DNA of 64,000 nucleotides from Gammaproteobacteria bacterium (GTDB lineage Bacteria; Pseudomonadota; Gammaproteobacteria; Arenicellales; JAANXG01). Location of the stretch: contig JAHEIO010000009.1 in assembly GCA_024639325.1 (NCBI GenBank), forward strand, positions 14 to 64,013, written 5' to 3'. Positions within the stretch are counted from its first letter, which is position 1; each line of letters begins with the position of its first letter. Under the pieces are notes generated by a model. That model did not search any database. It had not been told where the DNA came from and was given only the letters and a program-made list of their open reading frames with translations. Below, piece after piece: positions 7,634 through 52,824 of the stretch. The position numbers and the translations under genes are program-made.

Positions 7634-8466
7634 ATATTCTTCCTGAGCTTGGGGTCGATGAGGTCGCGCAGCGATTCCCCGAGAAATGTAAAGCCCAGGG
7701 TAATCAGCACCAGGGGAATGCTTCCCGCGATGATGGGCCAGGGCGTGTTGCGGATGAGGGTGTAGCCGTCATTGAGGATGCTGCCCCAGGACGGCGTGGG
7801 CGGCTTGACTCCCATGCCCAGAAAACTCAGGCCTGCCTCCAGCGCGATGACGGTGGGGATGTCCATGGACGCGAGGATCATCAGCGGACCGATTACATTG
7901 GGCAATACGTGCACACCGAGAATGCGCACCATCGAAGCGCCCATGGCCCGCTCCGCCTTGATGAACTCGTTGGACCTGATCGACAGAGTCTGCGTGCGTA
8001 CAACCCGGCCGTAGTTGGGGATGGTCGTCACCACGATGACGGCGATGACGGTTTCCAGCGAAGGGCCCACCAGCGCCACCGTGGCGAGCGCGAACATCAC
8101 GGTGGGGAAGGAGCGGATGGTGTCGAAGAACAGCATGATGATGTTGTCCAGCCAGCGCGGTCCGAACCCGGCGATCATGCCAAACAACACGCCGACGCCG
8201 AGGGCGGCGCCGATGGAGATCAGCGCCACCTTGAGCGCGACCTGACCGCCGTAAAGCACCCGCGAGAAGAGATCGCGCCCGAGCTGGTCTGTGCCGAGCA
8301 GGTGGGCGGCCGATGGGCCCTGCAGTCGGTCGACAATGCGCAGTTCGATGGGGTCGTAGGGCGCGATGACGCCGGCAAGCAGCGCACTGATCACGATCAG
8401 CACGACCAGGACGAGCCCGATCATGCCGAGCGGCTCGCGGGTTATTCGCCGCAGGATGTCGATCAC
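7630..8466 (-). CDS. ABC transporter permease (DppC/OppC-like)
   Basis: Multi-TM protein with a RRITREPLGMIGLVLV...APYDP N-terminus typical of DppC. I prefer the GTG at 8466, which forms a GTGA overlap with the upstream stop. The track start 8496 would give a 34-nt overlap. Confidence 0.85.
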   Translation of the reverse strand: MIDILRRITREPLGMIGLVLVVLIVISALLAGVIAPYDPIELRIVDRLQGPSAAHLLGTDQLGRDLFSRVLYGGQVALKVALISIGAALGVGVLFGMIAGFGPRWLDNIIMLFFDTIRSFPTVMFALATVALVGPSLETVIAVIVVTTIPNYGRVVRTQTLSIRSNEFIKAERAMGASMVRILGVHVLPNVIGPLMILASMDIPTVIALEAGLSFLGMGVKPPTPSWGSILNDGYTLIRNTPWPIIAGSIPLVLITLGFTFLGESLRDLIDPKLRKNI

Positions 8467-35043: not shown

Positions 35044-36177
35044 ATGAAGCTCACCCGGAGACAATTCAATAAAACCGCAGCCGCCACCGTAGGCTTGGCC
35101 GCAATGAGCCCGCTTCACCGGGCCCTCGCAGATCGTAATGATCAGATGAATATACTGTGTTGGGAGGGGTACAACTCGGACGAAGTGCTGGGCCCTTTTC
35201 GCGACGCGAATGCCGGTGCCACGGTGCGGGCGGAGAGTGGAACGTCTGATCCGGACATGATCAACAAGCTCCGTGCAGGTGAAGTCAACGTATGGGACCT
35301 GATCAATGTGAACCAGCCCTGGGCAAGTGCACAGCTGTATCCCGAAAAATTGATTAAGCCGCTCAACAAGGATCGGTTCATGCCTTATTTCGAGAGGATG
35401 CTGCCGGAATTTTCGGGTCCATATCCCCTGGCCTTCGCCGACGACGGTGAACTCATCGGCATGCCCCAGCGGTATGGTCCGTTCAGCTTCGTGGTCAATA
35501 CGGACAAGATAAGCCGAGGCATGGCGGAAGATCAGGGTTGGAAACTGTTTCTGGATCCCGGTCTGAACCAGCGTTACGGTATCCTCACTTATGACAACTG
35601 GAACATCATGCACATGTGCCTGACCGGCGACCAAAATCCTTTCGACCCAATGGACGACGCCGGACTGGAGACCTTCAAGGGCACGGCGGAAGCCGTTTTT
35701 GCGGGCGCCAAGCTGCTGACGGACGACCTGGTGGCCATGAACACCGCGCTGATCAACGGGGAAATCGACGCTTATTTCACGGGGGGCACCTATACCGCGT
35801 CTCCCGCACGCCTGGATGGTGCGACCAATATCCGGGGAATTACGCCGAATTCCGGTCCGGTTGACGGCAAGGGCGGCGTTGTCTGGATCGAACTCACCTC
35901 GGCCGTAAACAATCCCGACCCGTCGATACTGGCGGAAGATTTCCTCGAATTCGTGCAGGATCCCGAAATCTGCAAGGCGGTGAGCTTTGCGGAGGGTACT
36001 TACAACCCCGTGAGCCAGATGGGCGATTCGAAGGTATTTGCCCAGTACGACGAAGATGAACTCGATGCAATACAGTGGGACAGCCTCGGCGAAGAGATGG
36101 CGCGATCGCTGGATTATCAGGTCGTTGCCTCCTACGACAAGCTGAACGAGATCTACAACGCTGCCAAGCGGGGTTGA
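35044..36177 (+). CDS. ABC transporter substrate-binding protein, PotD/PotF-like (polyamine/amine family), Tat signal
   Basis: MKLTRRQFNKTAAATVGLAAMSPLHRALA is a twin-arginine signal. The size and composition fit PotD-family receptors. Confidence 0.8.
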   Translation: MKLTRRQFNKTAAATVGLAAMSPLHRALADRNDQMNILCWEGYNSDEVLGPFRDANAGATVRAESGTSDPDMINKLRAGEVNVWDLINVNQPWASAQLYPEKLIKPLNKDRFMPYFERMLPEFSGPYPLAFADDGELIGMPQRYGPFSFVVNTDKISRGMAEDQGWKLFLDPGLNQRYGILTYDNWNIMHMCLTGDQNPFDPMDDAGLETFKGTAEAVFAGAKLLTDDLVAMNTALINGEIDAYFTGGTYTASPARLDGATNIRGITPNSGPVDGKGGVVWIELTSAVNNPDPSILAEDFLEFVQDPEICKAVSFAEGTYNPVSQMGDSKVFAQYDEDELDAIQWDSLGEEMARSLDYQVVASYDKLNEIYNAAKRG

Positions 36178-36197
36178 TACGCTCCTTCCAGGCCCTA

Positions 36198-36225
36198 CCG
36201 ACCGGGCAGCACGATGCCCGGTCGG
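36198..36225 (+). other. intercistronic stem-loop between the SBP and ATPase genes
   Basis: ccgaccgggc - agcacgat - gcccggtcgg is a perfect 10-bp stem (11 bp if a36208 pairs with t36215). There is no U tract. Confidence 0.6.
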
Positions 36226-36259
36226 GGACGCCTAAAGCCTGCTCAATAATCTTTCTCCC

Positions 36260-37345
36260 ATGCCGCCGGAACCGATACTTCGCCTTGAAAATATCGTCAA
36301 GCGCTTCGGCGCCTTTACGGCGCTCCACCATATTGATCTGGAAATCGATGAAGGCGAGTTTCTGACCATAGTCGGGCCGTCCGGCTGCGGTAAAACCACC
36401 CTGATCCGACTGCTGGTTGGAATCGATGAACCGACAGAAGGCCGAATCTGGTTGCGCGACAAGCGCATAGAAAAAGTGCCCGCAAATCTGCGGCCGACCT
36501 GCATGGTGTTTCAGTCGCTGGCGCTGTTCCCGCATCGTTCCGTGGGAGAAAACATAGAATTTCCATTGAAGATTCGCGGTGAGACTGCGTCTCGGCGCAA
36601 GGAACGGGCGCTAGAGCTGCTCGACCTGCTTCATTTGCCCCACGATTTCTATGACAAAAGGATCAACCAGTGCTCGGGCGGAGAGCGTCAGCGGATTGCG
36701 CTGGCACGGGCGTTGGCGTTCGATCCGGAAATCTTGTTCTTCGACGAACCGCTTTCAGCACTGGATTTCCGCTTGCGCAAAAAACTGGAAAAGGAACTCA
36801 AGGATCTTCACGAACGCACGGGCAAAACTTTCGTGTACATTACCCACAGCCTGGAAGAGGCGATGGTCATGTCAGACCGAATCGCCATCATGAGACAGGG
36901 GCGCTTCGAGCAGATCGCCGTGACGGACGAGATTTATGCGCGTCCGATCAGCAGGTTCGTGGCCGAGTTCATGGGCGAGGTGAATCTGTTCGACGTGGAG
37001 GGAACGGCTTCGGGCGGCCTGCGCGGGCGAGGTGTGGAAATACAAGCCAACGCCACGGGTGGGGGTACGGAGCTCACTTTGCCGCAAGGGACGCAAGGCG
37101 CCCTGATGGTGCGTCCGGAGTCGGTGCGATTTCTCCACCCGGGCCAAACCGCGGATTTTATCGTGCGGGGGATTCTACGCGCGTCCTACGCGCTTGGTTC
37201 CCGCACGCAGTACAAGGTCGAATCCTCCGAAGGAATCGAACTCGCGGTGGAAAAGCTCAGGCAGGACCGGTTTATGGGAAACGTGGGGGACGAGGTCGTG
37301 CTGGGTTTCGATATGCAGAACACGCATATGATCAGGGAGCGCTAG
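36260..37345 (+). CDS. ABC transporter ATP-binding protein (PotA-like, with C-terminal TOBE-like domain)
   Basis: Walker A GPSGCGKTT, signature CSGGERQR, Walker B ILFFDEPLSALD. 361 aa. Confidence 0.9.
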   Translation: MPPEPILRLENIVKRFGAFTALHHIDLEIDEGEFLTIVGPSGCGKTTLIRLLVGIDEPTEGRIWLRDKRIEKVPANLRPTCMVFQSLALFPHRSVGENIEFPLKIRGETASRRKERALELLDLLHLPHDFYDKRINQCSGGERQRIALARALAFDPEILFFDEPLSALDFRLRKKLEKELKDLHERTGKTFVYITHSLEEAMVMSDRIAIMRQGRFEQIAVTDEIYARPISRFVAEFMGEVNLFDVEGTASGGLRGRGVEIQANATGGGTELTLPQGTQGALMVRPESVRFLHPGQTADFIVRGILRASYALGSRTQYKVESSEGIELAVEKLRQDRFMGNVGDEVVLGFDMQNTHMIRER

Positions 37346-37349
37346 CGGT

Positions 37350-38204
37350 TTGGAACGTTCAGACCGCAAAATCGGCTTTCTGAGCGCCGTTCCGATCACC
37401 GTGATCCTGATGCTCAGCTTCACGGCGCCTCTGCTGGTGGTCCTGCTGTTTTCCGTGATGCCTCCGAAGGTGTTTACCCTTGCTCACGTGCCGGACTTTT
37501 CGTCCTACGGCGTGCTCTTCAGCCAGGGCTACTACCGGTCCCTGCTCTGGTCCCTTGGCACGGCGCTGGCGGCAACGGTCCTGTTGTTTCTGATTTGCTG
37601 GCCGCTGGCTTTTGCCATGGCCAAGGTGTTCAAGGGATTCACTCTGTTCATTACCGTCGCCGTGGTAATCACCCTGTTCGTGTCCGAGAATATCAGGTTG
37701 TTCGGTTGGGTTCTTACCCTGATGAAGGGGGGGTTGATCGAAGGGCATCTCCGGGCATGGGTGGGCTGGAGTTTCGAGGGCGCGCTCTACAACGTTCCCG
37801 TGATCATCTTCGGACTGGTTTACGTCTATTTTCCGTTCATGCTGTTTCCTCTGGTCCAGGGGATTTCAATGGTCCCGGATGACGCGCGCCAGGCGGCGGC
37901 GGACCTGGGCGCAACCAGACGGCAGATATTCTGGGAAGTCGATCTACCGCTGTCGGCGCCGGGCATCGTCATCGGATCGCTGCTGACATTCGTGCTGGGT
38001 GCGGGGGCACTGGCCGAATCCAAGCTGCTTGGCGGTCAGGCGGTTATCGTTATCGCCGATGAGATCGAAACGGCTTTCACCTACGGTCAGAACTGGCCTT
38101 TGGGATCGGCCTTATCGATCATACTCATCATTATTATCGGGTCTTTGGCGGTGTTCGGGGTCAGCCGGGTGGATCTGGACAAGATAATGGGCAGGCGGCG
38201 CTGA
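37350..38204 (+). CDS. ABC transporter permease (PotB-like)
   Basis: 284 aa with 6 TM segments and an EAA-type loop DDARQAAADLGATRRQIFWEV. TTG start 4 nt after the upstream stop. Confidence 0.85.
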   Translation: MERSDRKIGFLSAVPITVILMLSFTAPLLVVLLFSVMPPKVFTLAHVPDFSSYGVLFSQGYYRSLLWSLGTALAATVLLFLICWPLAFAMAKVFKGFTLFITVAVVITLFVSENIRLFGWVLTLMKGGLIEGHLRAWVGWSFEGALYNVPVIIFGLVYVYFPFMLFPLVQGISMVPDDARQAAADLGATRRQIFWEVDLPLSAPGIVIGSLLTFVLGAGALAESKLLGGQAVIVIADEIETAFTYGQNWPLGSALSIILIIIIGSLAVFGVSRVDLDKIMGRRR

Positions 38205-39016
38205 TGCGGATCGGCCGAGCGACACGGATTGCACTCTATCTCTATGGCGTTCTTGTCATAGCGTTTCTGTATCTTCCTCTCCTGTCAGTGGGATTTGCTT
38301 CGGTGTCCAAGGCGCGGTACCTGACATTTCCCATAAAACGCTACGCTTTTCAGTGGTACGGCAAGGCGCTGGAGAGCTACACCGTCCAGGATCTGCTGTG
38401 GACGTCGTTGAGCATTGCCGGCATCGTGACCGTGATTAGCATGATCGTCGGTTTTTTCGGTGCCTTGGCGTTCGCCAGGTATCAGTGGCGTTTTCGCGGC
38501 GTGTTCCAGAAGCTCATCCTGTTGCCCATCTTTTTCCCCCAGGCCGTCCTTGGGCTGGCCTTGTTGATGTGGTTCAACTCGATTGGCATCATTCCGGACT
38601 GGAAGACGGCGGTGGTGGCTCATCTCGTCTGGATATCGCCGATTGCGACGCTGGTCATCGCAATTCGTGCGTACAGTTTTGATCCCGCGCTTGAAGAGGC
38701 CGCCCGCGACATGGGAGCCTCGACCTGGGTGGTATTGAAGGAGGTAACCGGACCGCTGCTGATGCCGGGTGTGATTTCGGCGGGATTGTTTTCATTCCTG
38801 TTGAGCTGGGGAAACTTCCCTTTGTCATTGTTTACAACCGGGGCCGATTCAACATTGCCGGAATGGCTTTATGCCAAGATGGTGTCGGGTTATTCCCCGC
38901 TGGTGCCCACCGTGGGCATACTTTCCATCGCGACGTCGATGATACTCTTGATCGTCGCGTTTACTATTTACTGGTTCGTCCGCTCGGCTCGCGAAAGGGG
39001 TGCGCGGATCATTTGA
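38204..39016 (+). CDS. ABC transporter permease (PotC-like)
   Basis: 270 aa with 6 TM segments and an EAA-type loop LEEAARDMGASTWVVLKEV. The ATG overlaps the upstream TGA by 1 nt. Confidence 0.85.
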   Translation: MRIGRATRIALYLYGVLVIAFLYLPLLSVGFASVSKARYLTFPIKRYAFQWYGKALESYTVQDLLWTSLSIAGIVTVISMIVGFFGALAFARYQWRFRGVFQKLILLPIFFPQAVLGLALLMWFNSIGIIPDWKTAVVAHLVWISPIATLVIAIRAYSFDPALEEAARDMGASTWVVLKEVTGPLLMPGVISAGLFSFLLSWGNFPLSLFTTGADSTLPEWLYAKMVSGYSPLVPTVGILSIATSMILLIVAFTIYWFVRSARERGARII

Positions 39017-39038
39017 CACCAATTACGGAGGTGCTGAT

Positions 39039-39818
39039 ATGTTGACATCCATCAAGGATCGTTCGGTCATCGTTACCGGCGGTTCCAAAGGTATAGGTAA
39101 GGGCATCGCCCAGGTGTTTGCCGCGCAGGGGGCCAAGGTCATGATCGCCGCGCGGGGCGAAGTGGCCGGCGCCGCCGCCGCCGCCGAATTACAGGCGGCC
39201 GGTGGAACGGCGGATTTCTGCCGGTGCGACGTCTCCGACTGGGACTCCGTGCAGCACCTTGTGGACAGGACGGTTGACGCTTTCGGCGGACTCGACGTCA
39301 TGTGTGCGAACGCCGGGGCCTTTCCCCAGACCAAAATGATCGATATGGATCCCGAGGAGTGGGACGACGTCATGGCTACTAATCTCAAGAGCGCATTTCT
39401 GTGCGTCAAGGCCTGTATCCCGCAGTTCGACAAAGCGGGCGGAGGCCGAGTAGTCTTGACGTCTTCCATTACCGGTCCGGTTACGGGCTATCCCGGTTGG
39501 TCGCACTACGGTGCATCGAAATCCGGACAGCTGGGTTTTTTGAAAACCGCGTGCATGGAACTGTCAAAATACAACGTTACCATCAACGCGGTGATGCCGG
39601 GCAACATCTACACCGAGGGGCTGAAGGATCTGGGCCAGGATTATCTGAACACCATGGCGGCCTCAATTCCGCTCAAGCGGCTCGGCGACGTCAAGGATAT
39701 TGGCAACGCCGCTCTGTTCTTCGCCTCTGACGAAGCGGGGTACATCACCGGCCAGACCATGGTGGTCGATGGCGGCCAGATCATACCCGAGTCCCTGGAA
39801 GCCATCGAGGAAATCTGA
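39039..39818 (+). CDS. short-chain dehydrogenase/reductase (candidate amino-ketone / amino-alcohol dehydrogenase)
   Basis: GGAGG RBS before ATG 39039. TGGSKGIGKG cofactor motif, NAG, and the catalytic YGASK. Confidence 0.85.
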   Translation: MLTSIKDRSVIVTGGSKGIGKGIAQVFAAQGAKVMIAARGEVAGAAAAAELQAAGGTADFCRCDVSDWDSVQHLVDRTVDAFGGLDVMCANAGAFPQTKMIDMDPEEWDDVMATNLKSAFLCVKACIPQFDKAGGGRVVLTSSITGPVTGYPGWSHYGASKSGQLGFLKTACMELSKYNVTINAVMPGNIYTEGLKDLGQDYLNTMAASIPLKRLGDVKDIGNAALFFASDEAGYITGQTMVVDGGQIIPESLEAIEEI

Positions 39819-39850: not shown

Positions 39851-40858
39851 ATGCCAGAAAGTGCCACGCCTTACGATGTAATGATAGAGCGCCTGGGCGT
39901 TCTTGCCAATCAGTCCCTCGGGCTATGGGATTTGCCGGAGGGCGCAACGGCGCGCCTGATCAACGTATCGGAAAATGCCACCTACCTCGTCGAGGCTCCG
40001 AACGGGTTCAAATCGATTCTTCGAGTGCATCGCGAAGACTATCACACACGCAACGCAATCAGTTGCGAGCACGCCTGGTCCAAAGCGCTCGACGAAGAGG
40101 GCGGGGTCCACACTCCGGATATTCTTCCGGGCCGTGACGGCAGCGGCATCCAGACCGCTTCGGTGGATGGTTTACCCGGCGAACGCCACATGGCCATGTT
40201 CGAGTTCCTGGAAGGCGAACATCCCGAAGAGGACGCGGACCACCTGGTGGAGTCGTTCGAGGAATTGGGCGAGATAGCCGCACGGACGCACAATCATTCC
40301 GTGGCATGGGTGCGCCCGGCCAATTTCGAACGGCTCGTTTGGGACCTCGACACCGTATTCGGTCCGCGGGCGTACTGGGGTGACTGGCGAGATGCGCCCG
40401 GCGTAACGGAGCAGATAAAATCGCTGCTCGAGCGGCTTCAGTCCGTCGTCGTTCGGCGCTTGACAGAATTTGGCAAAGGGGCTGAGCGATTCGGCCTGAT
40501 CCACGCCGACATGCGGCTGGCCAACCTGATCATAAGCGACGGAACAACCAGGCTCATCGATTTCGATGATTGCGGGCTGGGTTGGTTCATGTATGACTTC
40601 GCTGCCGGGATCAGCTTCATGGAGGACCATCCACAGATACCCGCTCTGAAGGACGCGTGGGTTCGGGGTTACAGAAAAGTACGCGGGCTGAGCGCCGCAG
40701 ATGAAGATGAGATCGATACCTTCGTCATGCTGCGCCGCCTGGCCCTGCTGGCCTGGATAGGCTCCCATATCGAGGTCGATACGGCAAAGGAGCTTGCACC
40801 CGCATTCGCACCCGTCACGGCGGAGTTGGCGGAAATTTATCTTGCCCATCAGGAATGA
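39851..40858 (+). CDS. APH/choline-kinase-fold phosphotransferase (candidate amino-alcohol kinase)
   Basis: Brenner motif HADMRLANL and the metal-binding IDFDD. 335 aa. It occupies the same position and has the same fold as the amino-propanol kinase of RMM-type BMC loci (established literature). Confidence 0.8.
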   Translation: MPESATPYDVMIERLGVLANQSLGLWDLPEGATARLINVSENATYLVEAPNGFKSILRVHREDYHTRNAISCEHAWSKALDEEGGVHTPDILPGRDGSGIQTASVDGLPGERHMAMFEFLEGEHPEEDADHLVESFEELGEIAARTHNHSVAWVRPANFERLVWDLDTVFGPRAYWGDWRDAPGVTEQIKSLLERLQSVVVRRLTEFGKGAERFGLIHADMRLANLIISDGTTRLIDFDDCGLGWFMYDFAAGISFMEDHPQIPALKDAWVRGYRKVRGLSAADEDEIDTFVMLRRLALLAWIGSHIEVDTAKELAPAFAPVTAELAEIYLAHQE

Positions 40859-40914: not shown

Positions 40915-41111
40915 GTTTCAAAGCCGCGCCTGTGCCACGCTAGATCTCGGAATGCATCGAGGCGGCGCCGTCTGGGCACTTTTCGCGGTCACATCACTTC
41001 ATCCTTCGGCAAGCCGTGACCATGCCGCGGCACCTGCGGCAAAGTGCCTTTAACGTCGTCAGGCCGCATCGATGCCGCCGCGCACTGGGTAACGAACCGG
41101 GAGGCAACACC

Positions 41112-42383
41112 ATGAGCGAAGCAAAACTCGAATTCCTGGATAGATCGAGGGCATTCTGGAATCCCGGGAAGACGCAGGATTGGCAGGACATGGGCGTCGA
41201 CCTCGTGATCGACCGGCGGGAGGGATATTACCTGTTCGATATGGATGGACGGCGCCTTATCGATCTGCATTTGAATGGAGGCACGTACAATTTGGGCCAT
41301 CGGAATCCTGAACTGGTGGAGGCGCTGAAGGCCGGCAGTGCCCGTTTCGATATGGGTAATCACCATTTCCCCGCACTTGCCCGCACCGCGCTGGCCGAAG
41401 CGCTTGCAGCCTGCGCACCGGCACCGAATATGGTGTACACCGCGTACGGTTCGGGTGGTGGTGAAGCCATCGATATTGCCATCAAAACCGCCCGCCACGC
41501 CAAGCAAAGACGCAAGATCGTGTCCATCGTCAAGGCCTACCACGGGCACACGGGTCTGGCGCTGAAAACCGGTGACGACCGGTTTTCCAAACTGTTTCTG
41601 TCAGAGGATACGCTGGGTGAGTTCGTGCAGGTCCCGTTCAACGACCTCAATGCCATGGAAGATGCCCTGCGCGGGCGGGACGTCGCAGCCGTAATCATGG
41701 AAACCATCCCGGCAACCTACGGTTTTCCGATGCCGCAGGAGGGTTATCTGCCCAATGTCAAGAAGCTCTGCGAAAAGTACGATGCCCTGTACATTGCCGA
41801 CGAGGTTCAGACGGGCCTGATGCGATGCGGTGAGCTCTGGGCATGCACGAAATACGGCATCGAGCCGGACATCATGGTGACGGGCAAGGGCATCGGCGGC
41901 GGCATGTATCCGATCGCCTGCACCTGTATCGGTGAGCATTGCGGCGGCTGGCTGACTGAAGATGGATTCGGCCACATCTCCACCGGCGGCGGCGCCGAAC
42001 TCGGTTGCATCGTGGCGATGAAAGTCCTCGAGATCGTGCAGCGCCCGGAAGTGAGGACCATGGTTCGATACGTTTCCGACTACATGCGCGCGGGGCTGGA
42101 CCGGATCATGACCGAGTACCCCGACTTCTTCATTGGGATCCGTCAGCACGGCGTCGTGATGGGCCTCGAGTTCAATCACGAGCAGGGAGCAAAACCGGTG
42201 ATGAAAAACCTATACGACAACGGCGTGTGGGCTATTTTTTCGACCCTCGATCCACGCGTGCTGCAGTTCAAGCCAGGCCTGCTCATGACCCAGGCCGACT
42301 GTGAAGAAGTATTGCGGCGGGTCGAGATCGGCATCGGTCTCGCCCGGGATGAAGTCATGGGCCGCCACAGGAAGAGCGCCTGA
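41112..42383 (+). CDS. class-III aminotransferase-fold PLP enzyme (candidate amino-alcohol-phosphate phospho-lyase)
   Basis: Start ATG 41112 (MSEAKLEF). ADEVQTGLMRCG and VTGKGIGGG (PLP-Lys region). About 423 aa. Phospho-lyases of amino-alcohol phosphates share this fold. Confidence 0.8.
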   Translation: MSEAKLEFLDRSRAFWNPGKTQDWQDMGVDLVIDRREGYYLFDMDGRRLIDLHLNGGTYNLGHRNPELVEALKAGSARFDMGNHHFPALARTALAEALAACAPAPNMVYTAYGSGGGEAIDIAIKTARHAKQRRKIVSIVKAYHGHTGLALKTGDDRFSKLFLSEDTLGEFVQVPFNDLNAMEDALRGRDVAAVIMETIPATYGFPMPQEGYLPNVKKLCEKYDALYIADEVQTGLMRCGELWACTKYGIEPDIMVTGKGIGGGMYPIACTCIGEHCGGWLTEDGFGHISTGGGAELGCIVAMKVLEIVQRPEVRTMVRYVSDYMRAGLDRIMTEYPDFFIGIRQHGVVMGLEFNHEQGAKPVMKNLYDNGVWAIFSTLDPRVLQFKPGLLMTQADCEEVLRRVEIGIGLARDEVMGRHRKSA

Positions 42384-43954
42384 TGGAACCCCAAGCGAGG
42401 ACCCTGGTCGATATATCGGGCAGCCACGCCGCGCTGGCGGGACGCGCCGACATGGTGCTGGAAAGGGCGCGCTGGGCGGCGGAAGTTTTCCAGCGTTATG
42501 ATCGTGAGTCGACCATGGCGATAGCCGATGCCGTTGCCGCGGCGGCACACGATAGCGCCGAAAGATTCGCCGACTGGGCGGTGCGGGAAACGGGATTCGG
42601 CGTTGCTGCACACAAGAAACTTAAGAACCAGTTGACGTCCCGGCCTTTGGTGGATTTTTATCGAAACGACGACTACGTCAATCCGCGCATCGACGAGGCG
42701 CGAAAGATCGTCGAGATCCCCCGGCCCGCCGGCGTAATCCTGGCGCTTACTCCTTCGACCAACCCCATAGCCACGCTCAACTACAAGGTTCTGATCTCGC
42801 TGATGACGCGCAACGCGATCGTTATCAGCCCGCATCCGGCGGCGCGCGAATGCAGCGTCGATGCGGCCCGCGCACTCGGCGAGGCCGCGATGGATGCGGG
42901 CGCCCCCGACGGCGCCATCCAGATCATAGAGAATCCCGGCATTCCTCTAGTCGAAGAACTCATGGTGTCGCCCAAGACCTCGGTGATCCTCGCCACCGGC
43001 GGCACGGCGATGGTGCGTTCCGCCTACTCGTCGTCGAATCCGGCAATTGGCGTCGGACCCGGCAACGCACCGGTGTTCGTTGATTCAACCGCGGACATCG
43101 ACAAGGCGGCAAAGCGTATCGTGGAGTCGAAATCTTTCGACAACTCGGCGTTGTGTACGAACGAGAGCGTCCTGATTACCCTGGAAGACGTCGATGCGCG
43201 CTTGCGCCGTTCGTTCAAGCAGGCAAAGGCTTACATTTGCGACGCCGACGACGTCGACCGCTTGCGACGGTATTTGTTTCACGATCGTGGATTCAATATC
43301 GAATGCATTGGTCGGGATGCCGCGTGGATTGCACAGGAATGCGGTATCCGTGTACCCGACGGCACGCTGGTTCTGCTGGCGCCTATTGCGCAGATTGGCG
43401 TTGAGGAGCCGCTTTCGAGGGAGAAACTGTGTCCGGTGCTTGCCTATCATGTGGTCAAGCGCCGCAACCAGGCGATCACGCAGGCTCGCGCGGTGCTGCG
43501 CCTTGCCGGCGCCGGCCACTCCGCCGCCGTGCACGCCATGGACGAGCAGGTGGCGATGGCATTTGCGTCCGCGGTGGAGGCTTATCGGGTCGTCGTGAAT
43601 ACCCCCTGTACCCAGGGCGCCGCCGGTTTTCAGACCGCGCTGGCACCTACTTTCACCGTGGGCACCGGATTTTACGGCCGCAGTTCAATTGGAGAGAATA
43701 TAGGGCCAGGACACCTCGTGCACTGGACTCGCCTGGCCTATAACTCGGATGCGTCTGAATATTTCGGCAACTACCGCGGGTTGAAACCGGGTTTCAGCGG
43801 CCCGCTGCCCGAGGCGCCCTCCGACGGTGTGCCGGGATCCAACGGATACCGGGCGAGACGCGCGGAAGCCGATGCCGGTGTTTTTTCCGGCGTAACGCGT
43901 GAGGAGTTGCGGCGCATGATTGCCGAAGAACTTCGCGCGGTGCTTAGGAAGTAG
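42383..43954 (+). CDS. CoA-acylating aldehyde dehydrogenase (EutE/PduP-type) with C-terminal encapsulation-peptide-like tail
   Basis: ILATGGTAMVRSAYSSSNPAIGVGPGNAPV and the catalytic-Cys segment FDNSALCTNES. A Pro/Gly-rich linker is followed by the amphipathic TREELRRMIAEELRAVLRK at the C-terminus. The ATG overlaps the upstream TGA. Confidence 0.9.
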   Translation: MEPQARTLVDISGSHAALAGRADMVLERARWAAEVFQRYDRESTMAIADAVAAAAHDSAERFADWAVRETGFGVAAHKKLKNQLTSRPLVDFYRNDDYVNPRIDEARKIVEIPRPAGVILALTPSTNPIATLNYKVLISLMTRNAIVISPHPAARECSVDAARALGEAAMDAGAPDGAIQIIENPGIPLVEELMVSPKTSVILATGGTAMVRSAYSSSNPAIGVGPGNAPVFVDSTADIDKAAKRIVESKSFDNSALCTNESVLITLEDVDARLRRSFKQAKAYICDADDVDRLRRYLFHDRGFNIECIGRDAAWIAQECGIRVPDGTLVLLAPIAQIGVEEPLSREKLCPVLAYHVVKRRNQAITQARAVLRLAGAGHSAAVHAMDEQVAMAFASAVEAYRVVVNTPCTQGAAGFQTALAPTFTVGTGFYGRSSIGENIGPGHLVHWTRLAYNSDASEYFGNYRGLKPGFSGPLPEAPSDGVPGSNGYRARRAEADAGVFSGVTREELRRMIAEELRAVLRK

Positions 43955-43963
43955 GCGGACAGC

Positions 43964-44575
43964 ATGGCGGAACTGCGTTCGTTCATTTTTATAGATCAGT
44001 TGCAGCCGCAGACGCTGGCCTATATCGCGACCTGGATGCGGGGTTCATTGCCGCGTCGAAACATGGCCGCACAAATTATCGAGGTATCGCCCGGACTGGA
44101 TATCGAGGCGCTGACCGATGTTGCACTCAAGGGCGCCAACATCAAAGTCGGACTGCTCGTAGTCGAGCGCCAGTATGGGTACTTGGAGTTTCACTCCCGA
44201 TCCACCGCCGAGGTCAAGGCCGGCGCGCAGGCCCTGCTGGATGCGCTGGGCGCGAGCGTCGAGGATGCCACGCCACCACAGATTCTCGGTTCCAAGGTCG
44301 TTACTCGCGTCGACCACCAGCATGCCTTTCTGATCAATCGCAACAAGCTTGGTTCCATGGTGCTTGGCAACGAGTCGCTGTACCTGCTGGAGTGTCGTCC
44401 CGCGTCTTACGCCATTTTGGCCTGCAACGAAGCGGAGAAAGAAGCCAACATCAAAGTCATCGACTACCGAATGATCGGCGCCAACGGGCGGCTCTATCTC
44501 TCCGGCGACGAGGCCGAGATCCGAAATGCGCGCAGCGTAGCCGAGGCTGTACTTCACGAAGGCGGGGTGGCCTAG
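43964..44575 (+). CDS. tandem BMC-domain shell protein (BMC-T type) 1
   Basis: 203 aa with two BMC-like halves (IIEVSPGLDIEALTDVALKGANIKV... and LLECRPASYAILACNEAEKEANIKV...). The N-terminus MAELRSFIFIDQLQPQ is as I recall for RMM-locus BMC-T proteins. Confidence 0.8.
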   Translation: MAELRSFIFIDQLQPQTLAYIATWMRGSLPRRNMAAQIIEVSPGLDIEALTDVALKGANIKVGLLVVERQYGYLEFHSRSTAEVKAGAQALLDALGASVEDATPPQILGSKVVTRVDHQHAFLINRNKLGSMVLGNESLYLLECRPASYAILACNEAEKEANIKVIDYRMIGANGRLYLSGDEAEIRNARSVAEAVLHEGGVA

Positions 44576-44578
44576 GAA

Positions 44579-45028
44579 ATGGTCGACGAACTGCGCCAGG
44601 CGATCCGAAGCATTCTGCTCGAGGAGCTTGCTGCACATGGAGTCGGGCCGACTCCGCAGTCCGCGCCGGGGATTCACGTCGAGGAGGTCGAGATCAATTC
44701 CGACGTAGACCTGGCACAATTCGTTCGACGCTTGCTGCAGCTCGCCCGCGACGGCGGCGCACTCTCGGCAATCGAATCGGGGCGCCACGTATTCAGGTTG
44801 CGCACAGCCAGTGCCCCGCAGCGGTCGGTGCAACCGCCGGTGGCATCCAGTCGAACGCCGGTTGGCGGTACGATGACGTTCGACGCGGGCCTCATCACTG
44901 AAAAACAGGTTCGCAATCTTCCTGAAAATATCTCAGTGGTAAGGGTGGGCGGCAGCGTGCGGCTCACGCCGCTGGCCAGCGATGCCATGCGGCGCGCGGG
45001 GATTAAAATAGAAAAGGTGACATCATGA
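44579..45028 (+). CDS. BMC-associated protein of unknown function with N-terminal encapsulation-peptide-like helix
   Basis: 149 aa: an amphipathic MVDELRQAIRSILLEELAA, then a Pro/Ser-rich linker, then a ~50-aa C-terminal module LITEKQVRNLPENISVVRVGGSVRLTPLASDAMRRAGIKIEKV. The start is 3 nt after the BMC-T stop and the end overlaps the BMC-P start (ATGA). Confidence 0.7.
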   Translation: MVDELRQAIRSILLEELAAHGVGPTPQSAPGIHVEEVEINSDVDLAQFVRRLLQLARDGGALSAIESGRHVFRLRTASAPQRSVQPPVASSRTPVGGTMTFDAGLITEKQVRNLPENISVVRVGGSVRLTPLASDAMRRAGIKIEKVTS

Positions 45029-45267
45029 TTCGTGGACGCATAACGGGCCGAATCTGGTCCAGCAAACACATCGAAACCCTGCCCAACGGAGCGCTTCTTG
45101 AAGTGACTCTCGATACCGGCGGCAGTCTGATCGCGCTGGATCCGCTCGGATGCGCCGAAGGTGAAGCCGTTCTCGTGACTCAGGGCTCGGTTGCCGCGGG
45201 CTACTTTACCAAGTCCAAAGCACCGATAGATGCGCTGATCATCGGGTCTATCGATGAACAGGGCTGA
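45025..45267 (+). CDS. BMC-P pentameric vertex protein (EutN/CcmL family)
   Basis: 80 aa. MIRGRITGRIWSSKHIETLPNGALLEV...ALDPLGCAEGEAVLVTQGSVAA...PIDALIIGSID is collinear with EutN/CcmL. Confidence 0.9.
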   Translation: MIRGRITGRIWSSKHIETLPNGALLEVTLDTGGSLIALDPLGCAEGEAVLVTQGSVAAGYFTKSKAPIDALIIGSIDEQG

Positions 45268-45324
45268 CCCAGGCGCAGCTATATTGTCAACGGCCAACAG
45301 GCCACAACTTTAGGAGAACACAAC

Positions 45325-45609
45325 ATGTCGAATCAGGCTATCGGAATGATCGAGACCCGCGGCTACGTTCCGGCGCTGGCCAGCGCCGACGCGATGGTCA
45401 AAGCAGCCAATGTCGAAATCGTATCACGCAATGAAGTCGGAGGCGGACTGGTATCCGTAGTGATCAAGGGCGACGTCGGTGCCGTCAAGGCGGCGACGGA
45501 AGCCGGCTCCGAGGCGGCTAATCAGGTTGGCGAAGTGGTCGCAGTACACGTTATTCCCAGGCCCCACCAGGACCTGAACCAGCATTTCAGTCTGGCGGCC
45601 GGCAAGTGA
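45325..45609 (+). CDS. BMC-H hexameric shell protein (PduA/EutM/CcmK-like)
   Basis: 94 aa. Canonical AIGMIETRGYVPALASADAMVKAANVEIV...GGGLVSVVIKGDVGAVKAATEAG..A. AGGAG RBS. Confidence 0.95.
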   Translation: MSNQAIGMIETRGYVPALASADAMVKAANVEIVSRNEVGGGLVSVVIKGDVGAVKAATEAGSEAANQVGEVVAVHVIPRPHQDLNQHFSLAAGK

Positions 45610-45642: not shown

Positions 45643-46272
45643 ATGACCGAGTTGAGGGTCTATCTGCCAATCCACGATCTGCAATCCCAGTTCTCCGCTT
45701 ATCTGAGCACGCCGATGCGGGCCAGGGGATATCCGCCTTTCGAAGGACAGCACAGTCTTATCATCGAGGTGTCTCCGGCGCTCGCCATACACCGAATATC
45801 AGACCTCGCCCTGAAGGCGGCGCCCGATATGGAACCGGGCATTCTGTTCACTGAAAGACAGTACGGATTGCTGGAACTGCATTCTTCGGATCGGGATGAG
45901 CTGGATGCGGCGGGCAAGGCGATCCTCAAGGGTATAGGCGCAATTGCAGGAGACCAGCTCGCGCCCGCCATCCTGTTCGAAGACATCATCGAGAATTTAT
46001 CGGACCAGCACGCAATCATTTTGAACCGCTCCCGCTCTGCCTCCATGCTGGTCCCGGGCTCGTCGCTGCTTCTTTACGAAATGAGCCCCGCGCTGTTCGC
46101 CTGTGTCGCCGCCAACGAAGCGGAACGCGCCGCGCCTGCAGCGATCCTCAACGACGTTCAGATGATGGGGGTGTCGGGTCGCATCTTCATGTCCGGCGAT
46201 ACCGGTGACCTGACCAGGGCGCGGGATGCCATTACGCGGACGCTGAAAGCGGTCAAGGGGCGCAAGAAATGA
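45643..46272 (+). CDS. tandem BMC-domain shell protein (BMC-T type) 2, paralog of 43964..44575
   Basis: 209 aa. It shares MxELR...I..LQ.Q..AY..T.MR, IIEVSPAL, ERQYGLLELHS, DQHAIILNR and NEAER with BMC-T 1. 13 of the first 27 residues are identical by hand alignment. Confidence 0.8.
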   Translation: MTELRVYLPIHDLQSQFSAYLSTPMRARGYPPFEGQHSLIIEVSPALAIHRISDLALKAAPDMEPGILFTERQYGLLELHSSDRDELDAAGKAILKGIGAIAGDQLAPAILFEDIIENLSDQHAIILNRSRSASMLVPGSSLLLYEMSPALFACVAANEAERAAPAAILNDVQMMGVSGRIFMSGDTGDLTRARDAITRTLKAVKGRKK

Positions 46273-46943
46273 GCAACTGGAAAAACGCTTACAGGTCATT
46301 TTATTACGCGAACGCCGACGAGCCGGAAGACCCGGTTCTGGCGCCGCGCGAGACCGCGCTGCTGGTGATCGATATTCAGAATACCTACATGGAGGTGCCC
46401 GGCGATGCCGCCGAGGCAGCACGATGGGGCCCGTTTTTTTCCAGGATGCACGAAACGGTTATTCCCAATACGGCTGCGTTGATCGAATTGTGCAGAGCAA
46501 GGAACATCGAGGTCATCTTCGCGCGCATTGCTTGCCTTACGGAAGACGGCCGGGATCGGTCTCTGAGCCAGAAGAAACCCGGCTTCAATTACCTGTTGCT
46601 GCCGAAGGACCGCGAGGACAGCCAGCTTGTGCCCCAACTACAGCCCAAAGGCGACGAGATAGTCATGCTGAAGACCACGGACAGCGCTTTGACAGGTTCG
46701 AACCTGCGGTTGATCCTGAACAACATGGGCATTCGAAACGTCGTCTTGGCGGGTATTTTTACGGATCAATGCGTCAGCAGCACAGTGCGCAGTCTCGCTG
46801 ACGAAAGCTTCAACGTACTGGTGGTCGACGACTGCTGCGCCGCGGCGACAATGGAACTGCACGACCACGAACTGGAAATCATAAATATGATCTACTGTCA
46901 CGTGGTTCAGTCCGAGGATATCCGGTCTTTCATCCGTAATTGA
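46269..46943 (+). CDS. isochorismatase-family cysteine hydrolase
   Basis: 224 aa. Candidate triad elements are LLVIDIQN (Asp), LKTTDSA (Lys) and FTDQCVSST (Cys). ATGA overlap with the BMC-T 2 stop. Confidence 0.85.
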   Translation: MSNWKNAYRSFYYANADEPEDPVLAPRETALLVIDIQNTYMEVPGDAAEAARWGPFFSRMHETVIPNTAALIELCRARNIEVIFARIACLTEDGRDRSLSQKKPGFNYLLLPKDREDSQLVPQLQPKGDEIVMLKTTDSALTGSNLRLILNNMGIRNVVLAGIFTDQCVSSTVRSLADESFNVLVVDDCCAAATMELHDHELEIINMIYCHVVQSEDIRSFIRN

Positions 46944-49628: not shown

Positions 49629-49803
49629 GAATCGCGCCTAACTCCTTCAAACAAAAGGCAGATTATACATCTAAGTGTGCTATTATTCTTGTATATACCG
49701 GCAACTTGGGGTACACCTGAGATAGTGAGAATCTGGAAGGACCACTCAAAAATCAAGAAATTCTATTCCAGGTACCCGTTGAACCTTGTGGGGTGAATAC
49801 GAT

Positions 49804-52800
49804 ATGACAACCCGGGCGTGGGGTTGTTTTGGCTTGGTCAAGTGCGGCTCGCGCCTCGTGGGCCTTTTGGCCTTGGCGTCTACGGGCCCTGCGTTCGGCC
49901 TGGGTTTGGGCGAAATGCGCGTGCAATCGGGCCTCGGTGAGCCCCTTGTAGCGGAAATCGAGTTATCGACGGCTTCAGCCATTGAGCTTTCGACACTCGA
50001 AGTGACGCTCGGAGCGGAGGATGTGTTCAATAACGCCGGTGTGATCCGTCACCAGTTCCTGACACAACTCGAATTCGAAGTGATCGAATCCACGCCACCC
50101 GTGATCAGGGTCACGTCGGTTCAGCCCATAAGCGAACCGTTCCTTCATATCATCATTCGAACCCGTTGGGAATTCGGCATGCTGCTGAGTGAGTACACTG
50201 CGCTGCTGGACCCGCCGTTGTATGCGCAGCAGCAGCCGGGCTCGATAAGCACGCCCGTTGTTCTCGAAGAACCGGATACGGGCCAGGCCGTCGAGCCGGC
50301 TTCGATCCCGCAAGCGGAGGTGTCTGGGATGCCGGCTGGCAGTTTTCAGTACGGTCCAGTGGCTCCCGGCGACAATCTTTGGGGTATCGCATCGCTAGTC
50401 GACACCGCCGGCCTCGATGCCAACATATTCCAGGTGATGATCGCTCTGTTGAGACAAAACCCGGATGCTTTCATAGACAATAACATCAACCAACTGAAAA
50501 GCGGCGAAACGCTAACGCTGGAGGACTACCAATCGATCCTGCTGATCTCGAAGGCGGAGGCCGGCAGGTCTTACAAGGCCCAGATCGAACGGTGGCAAGG
50601 GGCGGGGCCGAGCACCGTGATCGCTGCGCGGCCTGACGCGGCGCCGCCGCGGTCTGGACTGGTTCAGGCGCAAGCAGAAGCCCCGGCCGAGACCGCGACA
50701 CCGGAGGTGGTGGAAGTCGAGCCTTCGATGGAACAAGGCGCGGCAGGGGCCGCGGACCAGGACGCCGCGGATATGCAAGCCAAAGCGCAACCAACCGACC
50801 CGGATAAATACGTATTCAAGATCACACCTCCGGCATCCGACGCGGCGGGCGATGCATCCGAGGTAGCGGGCGAAGTGGATATGGAGGTCGCAGCCATGAG
50901 GGCGGCAATTGACAGGGAGATCGCCGCTTTGCGACAGCAGGTCGTGAAGCTCGAAAACGAGCAGCGGGTATCGAAAGCCCTTTCCACTAAAGAAGGTGAC
51001 ATAGAATCGATAAAAGCGGAGGCTGAAAAGGAAATAACCACGCTCAGGGAACAGATTGGCTTCCTCAAACAGGCTGGGGCTGACCAGGAAATACTGGCGT
51101 TGCGCGGACAGCTCGCCGCCCTCAGGCGGCAGGAAACGATGACGAAAGAGGCTTCCAGCGCTTCCGCCGCGTTGGCGGAAGCTGAGCAGGAAATCCGCGA
51201 ATTGCGTGCGCAGGTTGCGGCTCTGGCAAAAAGCGACTCCGCCGAGGCAGTGCCGGGGCAGAAGGACTTCAGCGACCTGAGCGATCAGGTAGATGTTTCG
51301 CAATCACCCGCGGTTGCGGCAACTGCTTCGCCCAATGTCAAAGTTGAAATCGACTCGATCAGAGCGGGAGCGAACCAGCAGATTACCGCCATGCGTGAAC
51401 AGATGGAGGCCATGCGCGCGGAAATGGGACAGCTTCTGGCCGCCCAGAAGCTTCGCGACGCGCAAAACACGGAACTCGAGAAGCGGATCGCGTCCCTGGC
51501 GGGCATGCTCGAAGGCAGGGTCGAATCGAGTACGCTTGCATCGTTGACTGCATCCGGGAACGGCAGCTCGAGCGCCCAGACGAAATCGCGCGCAGCGGCA
51601 GGTTCAGACAGTGACGGTAAATCCGTTTGGGAAAAGTGGTTCGACAAGCTGCCTGAAGACGACGAGTCCCGTATCGCGCTCGCCGCCGGGATTCTGCTGA
51701 TCTTGCTGTTGCTCTGGCTGCTCATTCGTCGGCATAGGGCCTTGATGAGAATGGAACAGAGCATTTTGATGGCTAGCGGAAACATGGATGAAGCAGCCAG
51801 CCAGTTATCGGAGTTCAAATCGAAAAAGCCCCGTTACCTGAGCGATCTGAGCATCGCCGGAATGGGAAGGATGGAAGCGGCCGAGGTCGACCCGTTGGCC
51901 GAAGCCGAGGTGTATCTGGCGTATGGACGAGCCGCGCAGGCGTTAGAGGTGCTAAAGGAAGCGTCTAGCCGGAATCCGGATCGCGAGGAGCTGAAGCTGA
52001 AGCTTCTGGAGGTCTATCAACACCAGGGCGATGTCGACTCCTTCGACGATCTCGTAGCGGAGATGGATCTAAGAGAGGAAGACATGGACCAGGCGACATG
52101 GAGCAAGGTTGTCGAGTTGAAGCTCAAAATGCAGGAGAAAACCCCCTCGCAAACGCCTGAACTGGATGAGCAAAACGACTCGCAGGAAAGCGAATCCACA
52201 CCAAGCGAATCCACACCAAGCGAATCCACACCAAGCGAATCCGCGGACCGGGAACTGCCGCTCGACGAAAGTATTGAAAAGCAGAATTCGCAAGAAAAAA
52301 TATCGGCTTCCGAATTACCTCGAGACGTACTCGCAAAAGCGTCCGTTCCCGTCGATCCAGCGCTGCGACCGTTTCCCGAGCCGGATGAGAATGCGCGTGT
52401 CGGTGAAGAAGTTTTGGGTACGCTCGGGCGGGCCGATGAGTCCGGCAGCGGTTCGCGTTCCGAAACCATACCTCCGGGCGCAAGCTCGGACGATTCGGAC
52501 ATGATGAACTTCGCTACCTCGGAATCCTCGGAGTTGGATTTCGATCTGGAGTCGGATCTGGAAAAGCCGCTCGACCCCGAGTCCGATTCCGCCGCTCCGG
52601 CTGCAGCCGATGAATCGAAGCAAACTTTCACTCTGGAATCCAGCGACACGGAGGAAGAGGGCGGCGATTTGAACGAAGTGTTGATCAAGACCGAACTTGC
52701 CGAGGCATATATGAATATGGGCGACAGGGATGAGGCGCTTCGTATACTCAGAGAGATCGTCGAAGTCGCAAACCCGGATGAGAAAATGCAGATTAACGAG

Positions 52801-52824
52801 TTGATGAAGCGCGCTAATCAATAA
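49804..52824 (+). CDS. fimV: FimV/HubP-family polar landmark protein
   Basis: N-terminal GLGLGEMRVQSGLGEPLVAEIEL, LysM (GDNLWGIA...LKSGETLTL), long acidic coiled-coil, one TM (IALAAGILLILLLLWLLIRRHR) and TPR-like repeats. The conserved FimV C-terminal motif is IKTELAEAYMNMGDRDEALRILREIV. ATG 49804 is preferred to TTG 49786. Confidence 0.85.
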   Translation: MTTRAWGCFGLVKCGSRLVGLLALASTGPAFGLGLGEMRVQSGLGEPLVAEIELSTASAIELSTLEVTLGAEDVFNNAGVIRHQFLTQLEFEVIESTPPVIRVTSVQPISEPFLHIIIRTRWEFGMLLSEYTALLDPPLYAQQQPGSISTPVVLEEPDTGQAVEPASIPQAEVSGMPAGSFQYGPVAPGDNLWGIASLVDTAGLDANIFQVMIALLRQNPDAFIDNNINQLKSGETLTLEDYQSILLISKAEAGRSYKAQIERWQGAGPSTVIAARPDAAPPRSGLVQAQAEAPAETATPEVVEVEPSMEQGAAGAADQDAADMQAKAQPTDPDKYVFKITPPASDAAGDASEVAGEVDMEVAAMRAAIDREIAALRQQVVKLENEQRVSKALSTKEGDIESIKAEAEKEITTLREQIGFLKQAGADQEILALRGQLAALRRQETMTKEASSASAALAEAEQEIRELRAQVAALAKSDSAEAVPGQKDFSDLSDQVDVSQSPAVAATASPNVKVEIDSIRAGANQQITAMREQMEAMRAEMGQLLAAQKLRDAQNTELEKRIASLAGMLEGRVESSTLASLTASGNGSSSAQTKSRAAAGSDSDGKSVWEKWFDKLPEDDESRIALAAGILLILLLLWLLIRRHRALMRMEQSILMASGNMDEAASQLSEFKSKKPRYLSDLSIAGMGRMEAAEVDPLAEAEVYLAYGRAAQALEVLKEASSRNPDREELKLKLLEVYQHQGDVDSFDDLVAEMDLREEDMDQATWSKVVELKLKMQEKTPSQTPELDEQNDSQESESTPSESTPSESTPSESADRELPLDESIEKQNSQEKISASELPRDVLAKASVPVDPALRPFPEPDENARVGEEVLGTLGRADESGSGSRSETIPPGASSDDSDMMNFATSESSELDFDLESDLEKPLDPESDSAAPAAADESKQTFTLESSDTEEEGGDLNEVLIKTELAEAYMNMGDRDEALRILREIVEVANPDEKMQINELMKRANQ
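52189..52242 (+). repeat. 15-bp tandem repeat x3.6 inside fimV
   Basis: agcgaatccacacca x3 (52189-52233) plus a partial agcgaatcc. It encodes SESTPSESTPSESTPSES. Confidence 0.95.

Follow-up and report, generated by a model that had tools for sequence, protein, structure and literature searches.

What does a small gene without a family name do in the middle of a set of bacterial microcompartment (BMC) shell genes? The question is raised by a stretch of 64,000 nucleotides from a gammaproteobacterial contig (JAHEIO010000009.1, assembly GCA_024639325.1), called the window below. Here, an open reading frame (ORF) of 149 codons plus stop, ORF149, lies on the + strand at positions 44579-45028, between the genes for a trimeric shell protein (BMC-T) and a pentameric one (BMC-P). 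We propose, at a probability of about 60%, that ORF149 is a structural, non-enzymatic counterpart of PduM, i.e., a tether and assembly factor that would join the cargo core to the shell of an RMM2/AAUM2 microcompartment. The comparison with PduM is drawn because the C-terminal module of ORF149 is homologous to that of PduM, the layout of the two proteins appears to match, and their genes hold the same position. The tethering function, and which end of the protein would hold core or shell, we infer by analogy.

A conserved gene in a fixed position

ORF149 starts with ATG, 3 nt after the stop of the upstream BMC-T gene (which ends at 44575), and its TGA overlaps the ATG of the BMC-P gene at 45025 in an ATGA. 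A first-pass annotation, made from the letters alone, had these coordinates, the gap, the overlap and the terminal sequences exactly right (the N-terminus is MVDELRQAIRSILLEELAAHG), and Pfam and NCBIfam scans give the neighboring shell genes and enzymes as it had named them. It had also called for co-occurrence profiling with RMM-like loci, reasoning that a lack of conservation in related loci would speak against a role for the ORF.

There are 29 unnamed close homologs of ORF149, at 40-98% identity, and in an exhaustive HMMER profile search, clustered at 50%, the family counts 732 representatives at E<=1e-3, of which 448 remain at E<=1e-10; almost all are 135-165 aa long and match over their full length. 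Thirteen gamma- and alphaproteobacterial genome loci keep the order aminotransferase, aldehyde dehydrogenase (AldDh), BMC-T, ORF149, BMC-P, hexameric shell protein (BMC-H), BMC-T; across them, ORF149 diverges much faster (30-49% identity) than its neighbors (70-90%). Because these loci had been found through ORF149 itself, we ran a non-circular test on 80 metagenome loci seeded with the BMC-T protein. In all 72 loci with enough downstream DNA to be evaluated, a full-length ORF149 homolog sits directly after BMC-T and directly before BMC-P. A homolog also occupies the slot in the RMM1-type loci L021/L022 and among the most divergent family members listed. Compared with L001, the closest locus, dN/dS is 0.31; for more divergent loci it lies at 0.24-0.35, and most substitutions fall in the linkers described below. 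With homologs filling the same slot in all loci examined and a dN/dS of ∼0.3, conservation is clear: ORF149 is a real gene, obligatory in its locus and under purifying selection.

Two minus-strand ORFs that overlap the gene (44045-44833 and 44674-45297) were set aside as side effects of the high GC content; both the pattern of conservation and dN/dS track the + frame.

Three conserved blocks and two linkers

Alignments and an AlphaFold2 (AF2) model built on 109 family sequences (mean predicted local distance difference test [pLDDT] score, 86.9) agree on a modular layout, in which three conserved blocks of fixed length are separated by two hypervariable linkers, all read on the + strand. The first block is a predicted N-terminal amphipathic helix resembling an encapsulation peptide (EP; residues 2-19, 44582-44635), 18 residues long, with a pLDDT of ∼85-88. 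It is followed by Gly/Pro-rich linker 1 (residues 20-32, 44636-44674; pLDDT 63), which varies from 6 to 23 aa across the family and has an entropy of 3.3 bits. The middle domain (residues 33-75, 44675-44803; pLDDT 94-98) is modeled as beta-alpha-alpha-beta; its length is fixed at 41-43 aa, and E66, R69, F72, and L74 are invariant among the close homologs. Linker 2, rich in Ser, Pro, Thr, Ala, and Val (residues 76-99, 44804-44875; 12-33 aa across the family; entropy 3.4 bits; pLDDT 53-80), leads to the C-terminal module (C-module; residues 100-147, 44876-45019; pLDDT 95-97), with the consensus GLxTE...TPLAxDxxRRxGIxIER and an AF2 fold of beta-beta-alpha-beta-beta-alpha-beta. The first-pass annotation had recognized the helix and the C-module, and both stand, but its single linker is in fact two, with the conserved middle domain, which it had missed, between them.

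Conventional searches return little. At E<=0.1, ORF149 finds no match in Pfam or NCBIfam, PDB sequence searches with ORF149 and with the 109-sequence profile gave only chance-level matches, and Foldseek searches of both AF2 models against the PDB gave nothing at E<=1e-3. A local resemblance over ∼65 aa to the N-terminal beta domain of Cas1 (Foldseek, E ∼0.2) is weak and was judged uninformative. These results bear on the idea that ORF149 is an accessory subunit or regulator unconnected with the architecture of the compartment, such as one that activates an enzyme or binds nucleic acid through a basic C-module. The C-module is indeed Arg-rich (TPLAxDExRRRGIxIER), which would suit such a role. 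However, Pfam, NCBIfam, and the PDB yielded no DNA-binding or enzymatic family matches, every family locus inspected in detail is an RMM-type BMC shell operon, and the module recurs in BMC-resident proteins. We consider this explanation very improbable, and the earlier suggestion that ORF149 is a small accessory subunit of an enzyme gained no support.

One family member is reduced to a minimum. P0197 (L023:8001-8258), of 85 aa, consists of helix, linker, and C-module, without a middle domain, and lies, like the other members, between BMC-T and BMC-P, with an ATGA-type overlap at either end. This minimal layout suggests that the two ends are the essential parts of the protein.

Other short forms have a more mundane look. 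In the high-GC, RMM1-type loci L021/L022 (7542-8207), the N-helix and C-module of the homolog lie in one frame and the middle-domain sequence in another (7879-8148), and gene callers kept only a 68-aa C-terminal piece; the frame split probably stems from assembly indels or miscalled starts. Many short database entries named “hypothetical protein” resemble such truncated calls of ORF149 homologs. When a large database was searched with the C-module alignment, all hits were short ORFs (27-88 aa), which revealed no domain partners of the module; most of the ORFs inspected look like truncated gene calls of high-GC homologs.

A C-module homologous to the PduM C-terminus

The first-pass annotation had pointed to similar short modules of the form (I/L)TP.A.D......GI in other BMC-associated proteins, of a family that it could not name. 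That module is real and is found in PduM, in the family TIGR02536, in fusions to the isomerase RpiB, and probably in EutT. Hidden Markov model (HMM) scans of 109 family members gave matches to TIGR02536 (“eut_hyp”) for 74 of them (best E 5e-11), to TIGR04493 (PduM) for 65 (best E 1.8e-5), and to PF15953 (“PDU_like,” which is the PduM family) for 11 (best E 8.9e-5). In each of these profiles, it is the last ∼45 positions that are matched (∼155-205 of 207 in TIGR02536), and all family members inspected score below 25 bits against TIGR02536, which has a cut-off of 152.6. The middle domain appears from its sequence to be specific to the ORF149 family, though two members align part of it, too, to TIGR02536 (profile positions 109-160; matches starting at 109/115 and running to 205). 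For ORF149 itself, the only NCBIfam matches at E<=10, among 18,950 models, are to the C-termini of PduM and eut_hyp.

Profile-profile comparison with hhalign, using genuine PduM sequences, gave a probability of 85.9% (E 5.3e-6) for the full-length family and 91.9% (E 7e-7) for the C-module alone, with a reversed control at 0.4%; an earlier PduM query had matched PF15953 over its full length at 198 bits. A greedy hhalign alignment with PduM is colinear from the N-terminus, at low confidence. The C-module of ORF149 is homologous to the C-terminus of PduM and matches the C-terminus of TIGR02536. By these comparisons, ORF149 lies outside the PduM and TIGR02536 families as they are curated, sharing with them the C-terminal module and an overall colinear layout.

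The resemblance to PduM (PF15953; TIGR04493/NF011957) extends beyond the module. The two proteins are similar in size (163 aa for PduM, 149 aa for ORF149), both have an N-terminal amphipathic helix (predicted, in ORF149) in the same place, and both end in the ∼45-aa module, which in PduM reads VTALARE/D...RNIQLI. Both genes lie directly upstream of a BMC-P gene, as in Salmonella, where pduM is followed by pduN, and a low-abundance, non-enzymatic role in core-shell coupling is presumed for both. However, the middle parts are unrelated, ORF149 has two long disordered linkers, and it lacks a full-length family match above cut-off as well as a Pfam match. In addition, ORF149 belongs to RMM/AAUM loci with double-stacking BMC-T proteins (BMC-Tdp) and amino-alcohol enzymes, not to pdu operons.

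TIGR02536, an uncharacterized family of Firmicute-type ethanolamine utilization loci, offers the best HMM similarity for the ORF149 family as a whole. Compared by profile, it differs in being longer (207 positions), in its locus type, and in scores that fall far below its cut-off. In a published large-scale complex prediction, the TIGR02536 protein of Listeria forms a trimer stacked on that of the BMC-T protein EutL (PMC13181095), and this prediction fits a shell-docking role.

The module in RpiB fusions, probably in EutT, and possibly in EutQ

Where else does the module occur? A genome scan found acidobacterial proteins that match the C-module only, within an N-terminal extension of the sugar-phosphate isomerase RpiB. 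In these Pyrinomonadaceae proteins (PF02502; L014-L020, e.g., L016:7827-8606 and L014:7773-8603), the layout is EP-like helix, linker, ∼45-aa module, RpiB. The fused module weakly matched PF15953, which was the first clue to a relation with PduM. The gene for a DeoC aldolase, which has a helical extension at its N-terminus too, lies 0.4-1.4 kb downstream, and no shell genes were found within 8 kb of the RpiB loci, which look like satellite cargo loci of the SPU type.

Two proteins of ethanolamine utilization may also carry the module; both were compared as single target sequences. Residues 3-46 of EutT from E. coli K-12 (eutT, L024:11503-12306) match the module profile with an hhalign probability of 76.9% (E 2e-5) and a HMMER score of 7.6 bits, and the module is probably present at the EutT N-terminus. 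Residues 2-47 of EutQ (eutQ, L025:103-804) match a broadened profile weakly (56%, E 1e-4). Over their first ∼47 residues, EutT and EutQ can be aligned without gaps, and both show the pattern xITxxxxR...TPxARE...I, as in the module, so that EutQ possibly contains it as well. The weak likeness in EutQ is of interest because residues 9-41 have been shown by experiment to bind the shell at the EutM/EutL interface; residues 62-99 bind the EPs of cargo (PMC12487888).

EutQ's N-terminal region (residues 1-99) thus follows the bivalent logic that we propose for ORF149, in that a shell-binding and a cargo-binding part are joined by a flexible segment, and EutQ 2-47 has an LIT...ITPxAR...G..I pattern. 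There are clear differences: the module would be N-terminal in EutQ and is C-terminal in ORF149, EutQ carries a cupin acetate-kinase domain, and EutQ binds the EPs of other proteins, whereas ORF149 has an EP-like helix of its own.

A predicted N-terminal helix resembling an encapsulation peptide

The first-pass annotation had likened the N-terminus of ORF149 to an encapsulation peptide, a view strengthened by the AF2 helix at residues 2-19, by a conserved pattern of hydrophobic and charged residues, and by the variable linker that follows. Across the family, the hydrophobic positions of the helix are 5, 8, 9, 12, 13, 17, and 20 (L5, I9, I/V12, L13, L17), a spacing that appears to be the doublet pattern of EPs, and R6, R10, E15, and E16 are nearly invariant. 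As expected of the EP class, this is a terminal amphipathic helix of ∼15-20 aa set off by a poorly conserved linker. The classical EPs (the N-termini of PduP, PduD, EutC, and EutE and the C-terminal EPs of AldDh) are likewise terminal amphipathic helices of ∼18 residues with the pattern x-phi-xx-phi-phi-xx-phi-phi and a poorly conserved linker behind them. In contrast to these, the ORF149 helix sits on a non-enzymatic protein, for which there is no non-BMC homolog for comparison.

The only other EP-like helix in the locus is at the C-terminus of AldDh (TREELRRMIAEELRAVLRK; 43895-43951, + strand), which is a candidate partner on the cargo side. Every RMM locus examined has this strongly conserved EP, with the consensus R[ED]ELR[RQ]xIxEELRxxL and a Pro/Gly-rich linker before it.

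The distribution of EPs in the locus brings up a second explanation, that ORF149 is an adaptor for cargo that lacks an EP. In that case, the middle domain, the C-module, or both would bind a lumen enzyme (the aminotransferase/phospholyase, the APH-family kinase, or the short-chain dehydrogenase/reductase [SDR]), the N-helix would let that enzyme ride piggyback into the compartment, and there would be no contact with the shell. Such an adaptor would have work to do: a recognizable EP is found on AldDh only, and the ORF translations of the aminotransferase, kinase, and SDR give no sign of a terminal extension, apart from one on the aminotransferase that is probably a start-codon artifact. The gene also always lies within the block of class-III aminotransferase, AldDh, and shell genes, and a family-specific middle domain would suit a locus-specific partner. 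However, the 85-aa variant keeps the slot without a middle domain, and the C-module is common to PduM, TIGR02536, the RpiB fusions, and EutT, that is, to compartments with quite different cargo, which makes a shell protein the likelier common partner than a locus-specific enzyme. We think that the adaptor explanation is unlikely.

A candidate core-shell tether

How, then, might a PduM-like ORF149 work? We picture it as beads on a string, with an EP-type helix, a small folded middle domain, and the C-module joined by two flexible linkers. The N-helix, and perhaps the middle domain, would embed in the cargo core, where AldDh would be the main EP-bearing enzyme, and the C-module would dock on the shell's lumenal face, with BMC-T or the BMC-T/BMC-H interface as the probable site. 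ORF149 could in this way couple core and shell physically during assembly and help to set closed, correctly sized compartments. The tight coupling of the gene to BMC-T and BMC-P, through the 3-nt gap and the ATGA, would tie its synthesis to that of the shell proteins.

Work on PduM gives this model its substance. Experiments have proven that residues 1-23 of PduM act as a signal sequence directing it to the core (PMC12108088). PduM links core and shell and, when cargo and shell assemblies are separated, colocalizes with cargo rather than shell (PMC9132943). Without PduM, core and shell come partly apart and the compartments are enlarged or elongated (PMC12108088, PMC9132943). In the RMM2/AAUM2 locus of the window, the BMC fold begins right at the N-terminus of the BMC-T proteins, unlike in PduB, which has an N-terminal extension, and the locus appears to encode no other obvious tether. 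Of the roles suggested in the first-pass annotation, that of a scaffold or cargo-organizing protein is the best supported, by the homology to PduM.

The same phenotypes could be read another way, with ORF149 as an assembly or regulatory factor for the shell vertices that would govern closure and size by escorting the BMC-P pentamer or by restricting how much of it is built in. Enlarged and elongated compartments, as seen without PduM (PMC12108088, PMC9132943), are a class of phenotype also tied to pentamer loss. In all loci, the gene keeps its ATGA overlap with BMC-P or at least directly adjoins it, and pduM and pduN follow the same order in Salmonella. However, gene adjacency is weak evidence of physical interaction, and ORF149 adjoins BMC-T upstream just as closely. 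Moreover, the colocalization of PduM with cargo, not with separated shell assemblies (PMC9132943), weighs against a vertex factor, and the published complex prediction pairs the TIGR02536 protein with the BMC-T protein EutL, not with EutN (PMC13181095). A vertex factor therefore seems quite unlikely to us.

Several results weigh against a PduM-like tether and temper our confidence in it. The homology to PduM and TIGR02536 is limited to ∼45 residues, and the scores of ORF149 itself are low: 12.3 bits against TIGR04493 (cut-off 50), with residues 101-144 on profile positions 112-153, and 11.6 bits against TIGR02536 (cut-off 152.6). Genuine PduM proteins reach 200-248 bits against TIGR04493. Neither the middle of PduM nor H3/H4 of EutQ shows similarity to the middle domain, and EutQ 2-47 alone, against the module, gave 1.8% in hhalign and 3.6 bits in HMMER, neither of which is significant. 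At the other end of the protein, the hydrophobic moment of ORF149's own N-helix does not exceed that of shuffled sequences, and an HMM of the AldDh C-terminal EP, built from 16 loci, does not match the ORF149 N-terminus (-0.7 bits). Across the ORF149 family, the same HMM gave a median of -0.5 bits and a maximum of 18.5, and an “ELRxxI” start is all that the two helices have in common. Since the AldDh EP profile fails to match the N-helix, we do not claim that the two helices belong to the same class of EP. Finally, the authors of the PduM work caution that polar effects on pduN may confound part of the phenotypes (PMC12108088).

Novelty and implications

How much of this is already known? Two related families exist in NCBIfam/Pfam, and tethers of this logic have been described for Pdu and Eut. 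What appears to be new, from the sequence comparisons, is the ORF149 family as a distant and previously unlinked relative of PduM in RMM/AAUM loci. The PduM paper states that PduM has no known homologs outside Pdu compartments (PMC12108088). The HMM table of the 2021 BMC catalog by Sutter et al. lists PF15953 for PDU loci only, and the catalog names all the RMM shell and enzyme genes of M. smegmatis (msmeg_0271, 0272, 0273, 0275, 0276, and 0277) but for the one in the MSMEG_0274 slot, which corresponds to ORF149 in position (PMC8217296). Our literature searches on MSMEG_0274, PduM homologs, and PF15953 found no prior description of the ORF149 family.

How core and shell are fastened together is a central open question for metabolosomes, one that has recently been addressed only for Pdu (PduB 1-37 and PduM) and Eut (EutQ). 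If RMM/AAUM compartments carry an obligatory PduM-like protein, it would be the first candidate assembly factor for RMM. It would also suggest a tethering principle common to several compartment types, because the C-module recurs in TIGR02536 (mostly with sub-threshold scores), in SPU-type RpiB, and, less securely, in EutT and EutQ. Even if our reading of the function is wrong, ORF149 defines a widespread and well-delimited family that has no Pfam or NCBIfam model.

It is tempting to go one step further and regard the ∼45-aa LxTE...TP(L)AxD...R.GI.I module as a general shell-docking domain of metabolosomes that has gone unrecognized, a second targeting device beside the EPs. Such a domain would span PduM (PDU), TIGR02536 (EUT2), the RMM/AAUM family, the N-termini of EutT and EutQ (EUT1), and the RpiB fusions (SPU-like). 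We offer this generalization tentatively and think it somewhat less likely than not. If it were true, core-shell coupling would be solved almost universally by tethers made of an EP helix, a linker, and the module, and the module could serve as a portable tag for anchoring proteins inside BMC shells, small enough to be tested in engineering.

The surrounding locus

Around ORF149, the locus encodes four enzymes and four shell proteins, all on the + strand: an SDR (39000-39818), an APH-family kinase (39851-40858), a class-III aminotransferase (41016-42383), an acylating AldDh (42383-43954), a CcmP/CsoS1D-like double-stacking BMC-T trimer (43964-44575), and, beyond ORF149, a BMC-P pentamer of the EutN/CcmL type (45025-45267), a BMC-H (45325-45609), and a second BMC-T (45643-46272). 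The adjacency of ORF149 to the first BMC-T is kept in all loci. With this set of enzymes, one BMC-H, one BMC-P, and two BMC-Tdp, the locus matches by gene content the RMM2/AAUM2 type (amino-alcohol/aminoacetone utilization) described for Proteobacteria in the 2021 catalog (Sutter et al., PMC8217296).

The reading frame of the aminotransferase, as called mechanically, starts with GTG at 41016, and homologs align only from residue ∼25-37 (window 41016-41112). Its true start is probably the ATG at residue 33 (MSEAKLEF...), and the apparent N-terminal extension is probably a start-codon artifact.

A gene for an isochorismatase-family hydrolase (46269-46943, + strand) overlaps the stop of the second BMC-T gene by 4 nt. 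The hydrolase gene lies directly 3' of the second BMC-T in the gammaproteobacterial loci L001, L003, L004, L006, and L007 and not in the alphaproteobacterial loci. In the HMM table of the 2021 catalog, the isochorismatase Pfam family is listed for BUF1 loci only (PMC8217296). The hydrolase may be an unrecognized accessory enzyme of RMM2.

Genes for an ABC transporter (substrate-binding protein, ATPase, and two permeases; window 35044-39016) travel with the BMC genes, upstream of them in L001, L002, L004, and L007 and downstream in L011, L013, and L027. This is probably the uptake system for the amino-alcohol substrate.

In L027, genes for the large/medium and small subunits of diol dehydratase (L027:1-2647) lie beside an RMM-type locus on the opposite strand, an arrangement that is the source of the old name “RMM2/PDU2.” Among the loci inspected, diol dehydratase genes occur only in L027, and the ORF149 locus is not a pdu operon.

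Farther downstream in the window, a 1012-aa ORF (49786-52824), apparently unrelated to the BMC locus, contains a tandem “ESTPS” repeat and long coiled-coil-like stretches rich in Ala, Glu, and Gln; its C-terminal half is acidic.

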